Below are positions 1,666 to 2,736 of a stretch of 19,591 nt of DNA, one piece after another. A program made the position numbers and the translations under genes. The notes under the pieces are model-generated. The model did not search any database, was not told the DNA's origin, and saw only the letters and a program-made list of their open reading frames with translations. Every line of letters begins with the position of its first letter. Position 1 is the first letter of the stretch. The DNA lies in IMG/VR virus record IMGVR_UViG_2703718871_000002. One strand, written 5' to 3'. This DNA comes from a virus (taxonomy: Duplodnaviria > Heunggongvirae > Uroviricota > Caudoviricetes).

Positions 1666-1861
1666 GCTTCACCTCGACAGGCTTGATTGTGTCGATCAGC
1701 AGTCTGCGGCGCGTATTTTCTGCAAAGTGGCGGCGTCCGGTTTCTTTGTGGTAAAACTCGTTTTTGCCGACGACCCACATCCGCTCTGTCTGGTGAAGTT
1801 TTTTTACCTGCGGGCCGTCTTTGGTGATCACAATGCCGGTATGGGTTTTTACGATTGTCAT
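1658..1861 (-). CDS. hypothetical protein (67 aa)
   Basis: Track ORF; ATG overlaps stop of the PAPS-reductase gene (ATGA); AGAGGTAG upstream. Confidence 0.5.
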   Translation of the reverse strand: MTIVKTHTGIVITKDGPQVKKLHQTERMWVVGKNEFYHKETGRRHFAENTRRRLLIDTIKPVEVKHV

Positions 1862-2736
1862 GCCACTACCTCTTCGAATTTCAACTCCAATTGGTCACCC
1901 CAGATTTCACATGACTCTGAACACGAGCCGGTATCGAATCGCTTGGCCTGCACCATCGCCTGATACAAATTTCTGTAGTCGCTGTCGGCATACATTCTGG
2001 CAATCCCGTCAAGCGTCAGGTGGCCACGGTACATAACGTCTTTACCTGTTCTGCGATGACCATCCCTGACGTGTTTGCCTGTAACCAGTTCATTAAAAAC
2101 CCGCATCAGACCAGGTTCGTCTTTACATGCAAGCCCCAGCTTTTGCGTTGACTTTTTGATGCAGAAAACACAGTTCCCGAGGTGCTCCGGGATTTGCAAA
2201 TCAAAAGGTTGTTTTCGCCACCACCGGATAACATCCGACTTATCAAAATCTGACAGCTCGGCAAGATACCGGATGCCCGGTTTCGGTTTCAGCCTACGGG
2301 GTTCGTCTGCACGAATACCCAGCCACGTGATGTAGTTCCCTTGTCCGAAATGGTCATCGCAGTATTTTGTGAAGGGGGTGAGTTTTAATCTGTCAGTGCA
2401 GAACGCGCCGCCGATGTATGGCGTGCCATATTTTTTTACCATGTCCATAAACGGTTTAAGCACCGGCATTCGCGTCTGAATATCCTTTGGTTCCCATTCC
2501 GTATAACCATTTGGCTGCCCAAGCTCTGGATTTATATCGACCTGCAACACGGTTAGCGGAATATCCCAGAACTTCACAACCTCCCGAATAAATCGGTACG
2601 TCAGCGGGTGTTCACATCCCGTATCCATGAGTATGTAATGAACGTTTTCACCAGCTTTTCTGCGTTGCTCCATAAGGTGGACGAGGTACGCCGATGTCCG
2701 ACCGCCTGAAAAACTCACAACATGATGAGTGCTCAT
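1858..2736 (-). CDS. phosphoadenosine-phosphosulfate (PAPS) reductase family / PP-loop protein
   Basis: 292 aa; N-terminal PP-loop signature VSFSGGRTS (MSTHHVVSFSGGRTSAYL), characteristic of the PAPS reductase / ATP pyrophosphatase superfamily. Confidence 0.8.
   Translation of the reverse strand: MSTHHVVSFSGGRTSAYLVHLMEQRRKAGENVHYILMDTGCEHPLTYRFIREVVKFWDIPLTVLQVDINPELGQPNGYTEWEPKDIQTRMPVLKPFMDMVKKYGTPYIGGAFCTDRLKLTPFTKYCDDHFGQGNYITWLGIRADEPRRLKPKPGIRYLAELSDFDKSDVIRWWRKQPFDLQIPEHLGNCVFCIKKSTQKLGLACKDEPGLMRVFNELVTGKHVRDGHRRTGKDVMYRGHLTLDGIARMYADSDYRNLYQAMVQAKRFDTGSCSESCEIWGDQLELKFEEVVA

Follow-up and report, generated by a model that had tools for sequence, protein, structure and literature searches.

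A lambda NinC ortholog in the pL operon of a Stx-type lambdoid phage: family signature, likeness to phosphorothioation enzymes and a possible counter-defence role

Phosphorothioation enzymes, the Vibrio anti-Dnd module and lambda NinC

SspD, BrxP and DndC are the phosphorothioate (PT)-writing proteins of the three known PT systems, all of them resembling phosphoadenosine phosphosulfate (PAPS) reductases (PMC12914056, PMC12839542). DndC is a PP-loop ATP pyrophosphatase that carries a [4Fe-4S] cluster on three cysteines, with a separate cysteine dyad thought to serve as sulfur carrier (PMC10853773). Here we describe a ninC-like gene, which we assign as the ortholog of lambda NinC in Shiga toxin (Stx) phages, and whose product probably resembles DndC, SspD and BrxP in its chemistry. 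The gene lies in a 19,591-nucleotide stretch of viral DNA (IMG/VR record IMGVR_UViG_2703718871_000002, Caudoviricetes), called the window below. Its closest matches, at 97.6-99.8% identity, are lambdoid phages and prophages of the Stx-converting type, namely PA2, VT2phi_272 and a prophage that adjoins a tRNA-Arg gene in the Shiga toxin-producing Escherichia coli (STEC) strain 2015C-3121.

Lambda NinC is without an assigned function in the literature, where it is called "poorly understood"; reviews up to 2024 state that phage proteins of this kind "deserve further investigation", and no direct biochemical characterisation of NinC was found in our literature searches.

The closest functional data come from Vibrio phages. 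Piel et al. 2022 (Nat Microbiol; preprint 10.1101/2021.05.05.442762) reported that p0018 and p0019 were the sole genes specific to phages infecting Dnd-carrying Vibrio crassostreae, and that a Dnd-sensitive phage, 66E30.1, reached 1e11 plaque-forming units (PFU)/ml on the Dnd+ host once both genes had been moved into it. Before the transfer the sensitive 66E30.1 carried only the Dam domain (96% identical), and the authors' verdict was that the two genes act as an anti-Dnd system, which they called "related at least in part" to the PAPS domain gained (10.1101/2021.05.05.442762); a later paper cites this case as evasion of Dnd promoted by a phage PAPS reductase. Since Dam methylation gives no protection from DndFGH (PMC10470545), the PAPS domain or p0019 is the likely active part. 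JSS1_004, another anti-Dnd protein, was considered as a relative and rejected, being an unrelated T7 gp0.7-like kinase.

Family assignment and signature of the NinC-like protein

A preliminary description of the window, made from its letters alone and referred to here as the sequence-only reading, had proposed a 292-amino acid (aa) open reading frame (ORF) at 1858-2736 with the PP-loop motif SGGRTS. Our analysis confirms this ORF and adds that it lies on the minus strand. Its product aligned with lambda NinC (Orf290, NP_040635) over the full length and with no gaps, 231 of 288 residues being identical (80%), and matched the profiles phrog_424 (E 6.4e-93, aa 2-291; labelled "phosphoadenosine phosphosulfate reductase") and phrog_33262 (E 2.5e-91), so that full-length similarity and the PHROG profile both place it in the lambda NinC family. 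The sole Pfam match was PF01507 (PAPS_reduct), restricted to aa 5-72, with 34.7 bits against a gathering threshold of 22.5; together with the Rossmann-like PP-loop fold and the SGGxD/TS motif, this score assigns the protein to the PP-loop superfamily. NinC belongs to a clade of PP-loop ATP pyrophosphatases that is specific to phages and forms part of the PAPS-reductase superfamily.

The gene is not new, being an ordinary and widespread phage gene with existing annotations: RefSeq contains a protein identical to its product, and some GenBank records already name it NinC. Homologues fell into 5028 clusters at 90% identity in a large protein collection, with 799 representatives at 50% identity (E up to 1e-10), and the gene is carried by 353 phage records and by 554 of 5426 complete E. 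coli genomes (~10%). The number of homologues and the frequency in E. coli show that the ORF is a genuine gene and did not arise by chance. Among the 598 places occupied by the gene in complete E. coli genomes, 74 are plasmid-borne, and these copies are presumably phage-plasmids.

In the RefSeq entry of phage PA2 (NC_028449) the gene is annotated at 9559-10374, which corresponds to 1858-2673 of the window and gives a 271-aa product starting at Met22; with this start the PP-loop SGGRTS is lost. The correct start is the one that gives 292 aa, which PGAP uses in E. coli genomes and which agrees with lambda NinC. We also observed a 294-aa chimera (P0020, on 20 contigs) that joins NinC residues 1-230, 95% identical to the window protein, to a DUF551 C-terminus; it lacks the conserved C-terminal cysteine dyad and is therefore probably an inactivated or repurposed copy.

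Conservation was evaluated on 99 family members sharing 27-53% identity with the window protein, and positions conserved in at least 85% of them were listed. Within the PP-loop, S10, G11, G12, T14 and S15 were conserved at 89-98%. In the CxxC motif G187, N188, C189 and K195 were invariant (100%) and C192 reached 99%, while the further conserved positions were T39-G-x-E42, K102-Y-G104 and C113-T114 ... K118; C126 was not conserved. The G140-R148 motif presumably takes part in substrate or nucleotide phosphate binding, as we assume from the PAPS-reductase family. An AlphaFold2 model of the protein had a confidence (pLDDT) of 86.6; in it Cys113 opens a helix spanning residues 113-130, and residues 269-292 (pLDDT <50), where the dyad C272/C276 is found, form the sole disordered part. 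The family signature thus combines a PP-loop with three core cysteines and, on a predicted mobile tail, a cysteine dyad. By position, this dyad would be the analogue of the C-terminal catalytic cysteine of CysH and of the DndC cysteine dyad (PMC10853773).

The same inventory of elements is present in DndC, namely PP-loop, a three-cysteine site (in NinC a candidate Fe-S site) and Cys dyad, with cysteines that may be equivalent in both proteins; however, DndC is ~450-500 aa long, compared with 292 aa for NinC, and works with DndD and DndE. When 41 aligned NinC members were compared with profiles of defence systems, SspD was matched by all 41 (best E 2.5e-17), BrxP by 40 and DndC by 24. The window protein itself matched the SspD profile with an E of 9e-15 (profile positions 1-121 of 277) and the PADLOC DndC profile with an E of 2e-4 in its N-terminal half. 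SspD and BrxP, from SspABCD and from type 4 of bacteriophage exclusion (BREX), were the best-matching defence profiles and are of the PP-loop ATP-pyrophosphatase type, as is NinC; they belong to defence systems, whereas the context of NinC is a phage and not a defence island.

Among the homologs is p0018 of Vibrio phage 44E38.1 (P0089 in our set, annotated as "Dam methyltransferase with PAPS reductase domain"), which is 56% identical to the window protein over 95% of the query. In p0018 (phages 44E38.1 and 41E34.2) the N-terminal 280 residues are homologous to the window protein and keep all the signature motifs, and the gene lies in a nin-like region beside DUF1367 and NinG homologs. It differs in having a C-terminal Dam domain and in being translationally coupled to p0019 (196 aa), whereas the window protein stands alone.

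Fusion to DNA methyltransferases was found repeatedly in the family. The NinC-like domain is joined to a phage Dam domain (PF05869) placed at the C-terminus in four cases (P0121, P0127, P0158 and L041) and at the N-terminus in two (P0124 and P0126), and to a D12-class N6-adenine methyltransferase in another (P0128). One locus (L046:4576-7482) has an uninterrupted frame of 968 aa combining the N-terminal part of a C5-cytosine methylase with NinC-like and phage Dam domains, apparently a triple fusion for DNA modification. Among 77 related viral loci, 11 had a methyltransferase fusion and 7 others a separate methyltransferase nearby, directly upstream in 4 of them; one NinC of the latter group is 80% identical to the window protein. 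Two fusion orientations and two methyltransferase families imply at least three independent fusions, and such repetition is the pattern expected of enzymes that share a substrate, phage DNA. In a further locus (L040:4579-7053) an unannotated N-terminal extension of 470 aa precedes the NinC-like domain.

Possible function of NinC and competing explanations

The explanation that we tentatively favour, short of considering it probable, is that NinC is an early counter-defence enzyme acting on phage DNA with DndC/SspD-like chemistry, which would leave a PT-type mark as protection against Dnd (possibly Ssp) restriction. NinC would be expressed early, here from the pL operon; ATP would be bound at the PP-loop and split to AMP and pyrophosphate, the target being activated by adenylation. 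Sulfur from a host cysteine desulfurase would be loaded onto the tail Cys dyad and/or the three-Cys site (probably Fe-S) and passed to the activated target, most likely the phage DNA backbone. The product would be a phosphorothioate-type mark, by which phage DNA might be taken as "self" by Dnd-type (possibly Ssp) restriction. NinC orthology, the fold and motifs, the exclusion of CysH, the recurrent methyltransferase fusions and the published phenotype of the related two-gene module are established; in this scheme we infer the DNA substrate, the sulfur transfer, the PT product and the sharing of a single activity by the standalone copy and the Vibrio fusion. The sequence-only reading had preferred DNA modification or anti-restriction to sulfate assimilation, naming a DndC-like enzyme among the options; this preference is supported, as the test for CysH fails (see below) and the DndC-like lead gains from the SspD/BrxP/DndC profile matches, the DNA methyltransferase fusions and the 56%-identical anti-Dnd homolog. 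Its caution that the substrate is not inferable from the sequence still holds.

Several points weigh against this role. To our knowledge, there is no report of PT in the DNA of lambda. NinC resembles SspD and DndC in its N-terminal half only (aa 4-148), the DndC model TIGR03183 gave 17.2 bits compared with a cutoff of 290.4, and no DndD/DndE or SspB/SspC partner nor P-loop NTPase was found near the gene (DndD, DndE, SspB/DUF4007 and the SspC/BrxC ATPase being absent from the window and from the 77 related loci, and SspA not nearby). Half-length matches, missed DndC cutoffs and lack of partner genes mean that membership in the DndC/SspD families fails, and in the published view PT synthesis requires a PAPS domain plus an NTPase. 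The Fe-S role of Cys113, C189 and C192 and the persulfide role of C272/C276 are likewise predictions. In the case of the Vibrio module, the anti-Dnd phenotype was shown for p0018 and p0019 jointly, in an exchange in which two genes replaced four (10.1101/2021.05.05.442762), and no p0019 homolog is present in the window. On K-12, lambda does not need ninC (PMC10695390). Finally, Dnd systems restrict lambda by 1-2 logs only, compared with up to 5 logs for lytic phages (PMC10470545, which does not give the nin genotype of its lambda). This mild restriction is compatible with an anti-Dnd model and not specific to it; the loss of 1-2 logs also means that in this setting NinC does not protect lambda fully from Dnd.

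It is rather unlikely, in our judgement, that NinC makes a different kind of DNA modification, in which a base or a DNA end would be activated by ATP (amidation, thiolation or other nucleobase substitution) and the mark would act beside or downstream of N6-adenine methylation, evading restriction in general. PP-loop enzymes often adenylate nucleobase carbonyls or carboxylates, and TilS, GMP synthetase, QueC and tRNA thiolases are structural neighbours of the protein; the repeated fusion to N6-adenine and C5-cytosine DNA methyltransferases would fit a combined modification module, and no DndD/E-type partner is at hand. Nevertheless, the sole recorded phenotype is anti-Dnd, the closest defence profiles are those of the PT writers SspD, BrxP and DndC, and the five conserved cysteines indicate sulfur chemistry. 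We consider it unlikely that NinC leaves phage DNA unmodified and disturbs instead the Dnd/Ssp machinery of the host or the sulfur supply to it, for example as a DndC/SspD mimic titrating IscS/DndA persulfide or DndDE/SspBC, or by indirect disarming of DndFGH. NinC is indeed homologous to host PT writers and devoid of their partners, and other phage anti-Dnd factors, such as the JSS1_004 kinase, target host proteins (PMC12345140). Catalytic motifs that are near-invariant at 27-53% identity favour an enzyme over a decoy, however, and the DNA methyltransferase fusion puts NinC on DNA; moreover, blocking host PT writing alone would presumably not shield incoming unmodified phage DNA from DndFGH.

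A tRNA or RNA thiolation or modification enzyme (TtcA/TtuA/NcsA-like) that retunes translation during infection seems improbable: no THUMP, Zn-finger or TilS C-terminal domain is present, PAPS_reduct being the only Pfam domain, the TilS model scored 14.8 bits against a cutoff of 606, and the fusion partners are DNA methyltransferases and not RNA enzymes. The usual database label would make NinC a functional PAPS reductase of the CysH type, encoded by an auxiliary metabolic gene (AMG) that boosts host sulfate assimilation, in agreement with the PHROG category "moron, auxiliary metabolic gene", with the presence of CysH among the best structural matches and with a 2026 preprint that reads prophage PAPS reductases in this way. 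We regard this as highly improbable. The NCBIfam CysH models scored far below their cutoffs (PRK02090, 22.6 bits vs 154; TIGR00434, 16.1 vs 165.1); the family profile aligned with CysH and adenosine phosphosulfate (APS) reductase sequences of the PDB over residues 3-99 only, at ~20% identity, and since this alignment ends at residue 99 the profile search gave no alignment of the cysteines to the APS-reductase Fe-S ligands, a CC...CxxC set that holds a [4Fe-4S] cluster. A regular-expression search found no ECG[LI]H motif, which in CysH is C-terminal and contains the thioredoxin-dependent catalytic Cys; the tail of the window protein reads GSCSESCEIWG. NinC retains a true, canonical PP-loop that is missing in CysH (SFSGGRTSA in NinC vs SSSFGIQAA in CysH at the aligned site), Foldseek TM-scores to CysH were 0.38-0.5, and a DNA methyltransferase fusion would be senseless for a sulfate-assimilation enzyme. 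Orthology to a housekeeping CysH, named beforehand as the finding that would overturn a role in DNA modification, therefore fails on scores, alignment extent and motif; the AMG identity is rejected on these same grounds, and NinC can be placed in a distant, separate clade of the superfamily. The deazaguanine (QueC-like) option of the sequence-only reading was also discarded, as neither a QueC profile match nor co-encoded DpdA, FolE, QueD or QueE supported it. The probability left over is assigned to explanations outside those considered here.

Regarding the favoured counter-defence role, ninC is among the last lambda genes without a function, and is now tied at 56% identity to the sole phage "PAPS reductase" with a phenotype (anti-Dnd), while the PP-loop, the three core cysteines and the tail dyad define a catalytic signature that can be tested. 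In studies of viromes and prophages, such genes continue to be listed as AMGs of sulfur metabolism, a label that is very probably wrong for the NinC clade. Many Stx-converting phages carry the gene; thus an anti-restriction role, if true, bears on the host range of toxin phages. We also put forward, as an unlikely extension of this role, that NinC might be a self-sufficient, single-polypeptide DNA sulfur writer, either a minimal PT enzyme or one placing another ATP- and Cys-dependent mark on backbone or base. Such a writer would require only a host cysteine desulfurase, and its sequence targeting would come from a methyltransferase, either fused or co-encoded, or from intermediates of replication/recombination. 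If NinC did write a DNA mark alone, no smaller PT-type modifier would be known; an overlooked modification would be present in the DNA of lambda and of Stx phages, and PT writing would not be strictly dependent on a DndD/SspC-type NTPase.

Location of the gene and other features of the phage

The ninC-like gene is transcribed leftward with the early genes, after kil, gam, recT and exo and before ea22, in the "accessory" region of the pL operon; its earlier placement in an early accessory region, between the exo/RecT/Gam recombination genes and ea22, was right. No promoter, terminator, leader or RNA structure over background was detected around the gene, which is therefore most simply part of the long pL transcript. 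The coordinates of the features discussed are collected in Table 1.

Table 1. Features of the window, with the motifs and conserved residues of the NinC-like protein (conservation among the 99 family members)
Feature	Position	Strand	Remarks
ninC-like coding sequence, 292 aa	1858..2736	minus	ATG start; PP-loop ATP-pyrophosphatase type, PAPS-reductase superfamily; lambda NinC ortholog
PP-loop S10-G-G-R-T-S15	2692..2709	minus	ATP pyrophosphatase motif; checked by translation
G140-I-R-A-D-E-P-R-R148	2293..2319	minus	G-x-R-x-D-E-x-x-R family motif; G140, R142, D144, E145 and R148 98-100% conserved
Cys113	2398..2400	minus	First of three core cysteines, candidate Fe-S ligand; 99% conserved
G187-N-C189-V-F-C192-I-K-K195	2152..2178	minus	CxxC motif, candidate Fe-S ligands; identified by conservation
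C272-S-E-S-C276	1909..1923	minus	Cys dyad in disordered C-terminal tail, candidate mobile persulfide carrier; 97-98% conserved
orf67	1658..1861	minus	phrog_1226, unknown function; start overlaps ninC-like stop (ATGA)
orf79	1426..1665	minus	phrog_1344, unknown function; 8-nt overlap with orf67 (ATGTTTAA)
ead/Ea22-like gene	536..1429	minus	GTG start overlaps orf79 stop (GTGA); end of coupled chain
147-aa gene	2844..3287	minus	phrog_1363, unknown function; upstream of ninC-like gene, 107-nt spacer
BsuBI/PstI-family endonuclease	9189-10142	minus	Type II restriction-modification (R-M) pair, immunity region; overlaps methylase
Eco57I-like methylase	10139-11608	minus	Type II R-M pair, just upstream of CI repressor gene
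CI repressor gene	11703-12416		
Replication module	13618-16099	plus	DEAD/DEAH-box helicase and DUF7146 protein; not lambda-type O/P
DUF1367 gene	16099-16548	plus	Fills nin-region slot of lambda NinB-NinC
Three tRNA genes	18834-19085	plus	After Q antiterminator: CAT, Arg-TCG, Arg-TCT

Lambda NinC shares length, PP-loop and cysteines with the window protein, and both are produced from N-antiterminated early operons; however, lambda ninC is flanked by ninB and ninD and belongs to the pR nin region. The usual context among the 77 viral loci is also a nin region, with O, DnaB and NinB upstream and NinF, NinG and Q downstream. The window copy is found outside this location (replication genes to Q), which is typical of the NinC family and not defining. 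As the nin region of the window phage passes directly from DUF1367 to NinG, without ninC, and the gene sits in the pL operon, it has moved as a module.

Translational coupling to two small downstream genes, suggested earlier, stands as far as the overlapping stop and start codons are concerned; a conserved partnership does not, as orf67 and orf79 lie beside the ninC-like gene in 7 of the 77 loci, all of the near-identical pL-operon type (NinC at least 94% identical). The 147-aa gene adjoins it in 2 of the 77 (L003 and L004), and a 40%-identical homolog of this gene lies 3.4 kb away from the ninC-like gene in another (L049). The three genes were thus rejected as conserved partners of ninC, and they showed no homology to lambda NinD, NinE or NinF nor to Vibrio p0019, p0020 or p0021. 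No significant structure or signals were detected in the 107-nt spacer. The ead/Ea22-like gene has an AAGGAGG Shine-Dalgarno sequence and matches PF13935 (E 5e-32), and its GTG start is the one given by PGAP in a 98%-identical prophage. In 10 loci (L007-L016; NinC 92-95% identical) the slot held in the window by the 147-aa gene is occupied by a 187-aa protein encoded directly upstream of ninC and overlapping its start (e.g. L008:5447-6010), with a weak match (E 3e-5) to an HD-domain, YfbR-like 5'-deoxynucleotidase.

The type II R-M pair in the immunity region indicates that the phage is itself armed with an R-M system. The DUF1367 protein of the window shares 56% identity with p0017 of Vibrio phage 41E34.2, encoded right after the anti-Dnd PAPS-Dam fusion, and the nin-like modules of both phages are therefore related. 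Of the tRNA genes, the one with CAT is assigned to Met by ARAGORN but to Ile by PGAP. Just before the tRNAs of the window, at ~18680-18793, a remnant of a DNA-methyltransferase pseudogene is annotated in a 98%-identical prophage.

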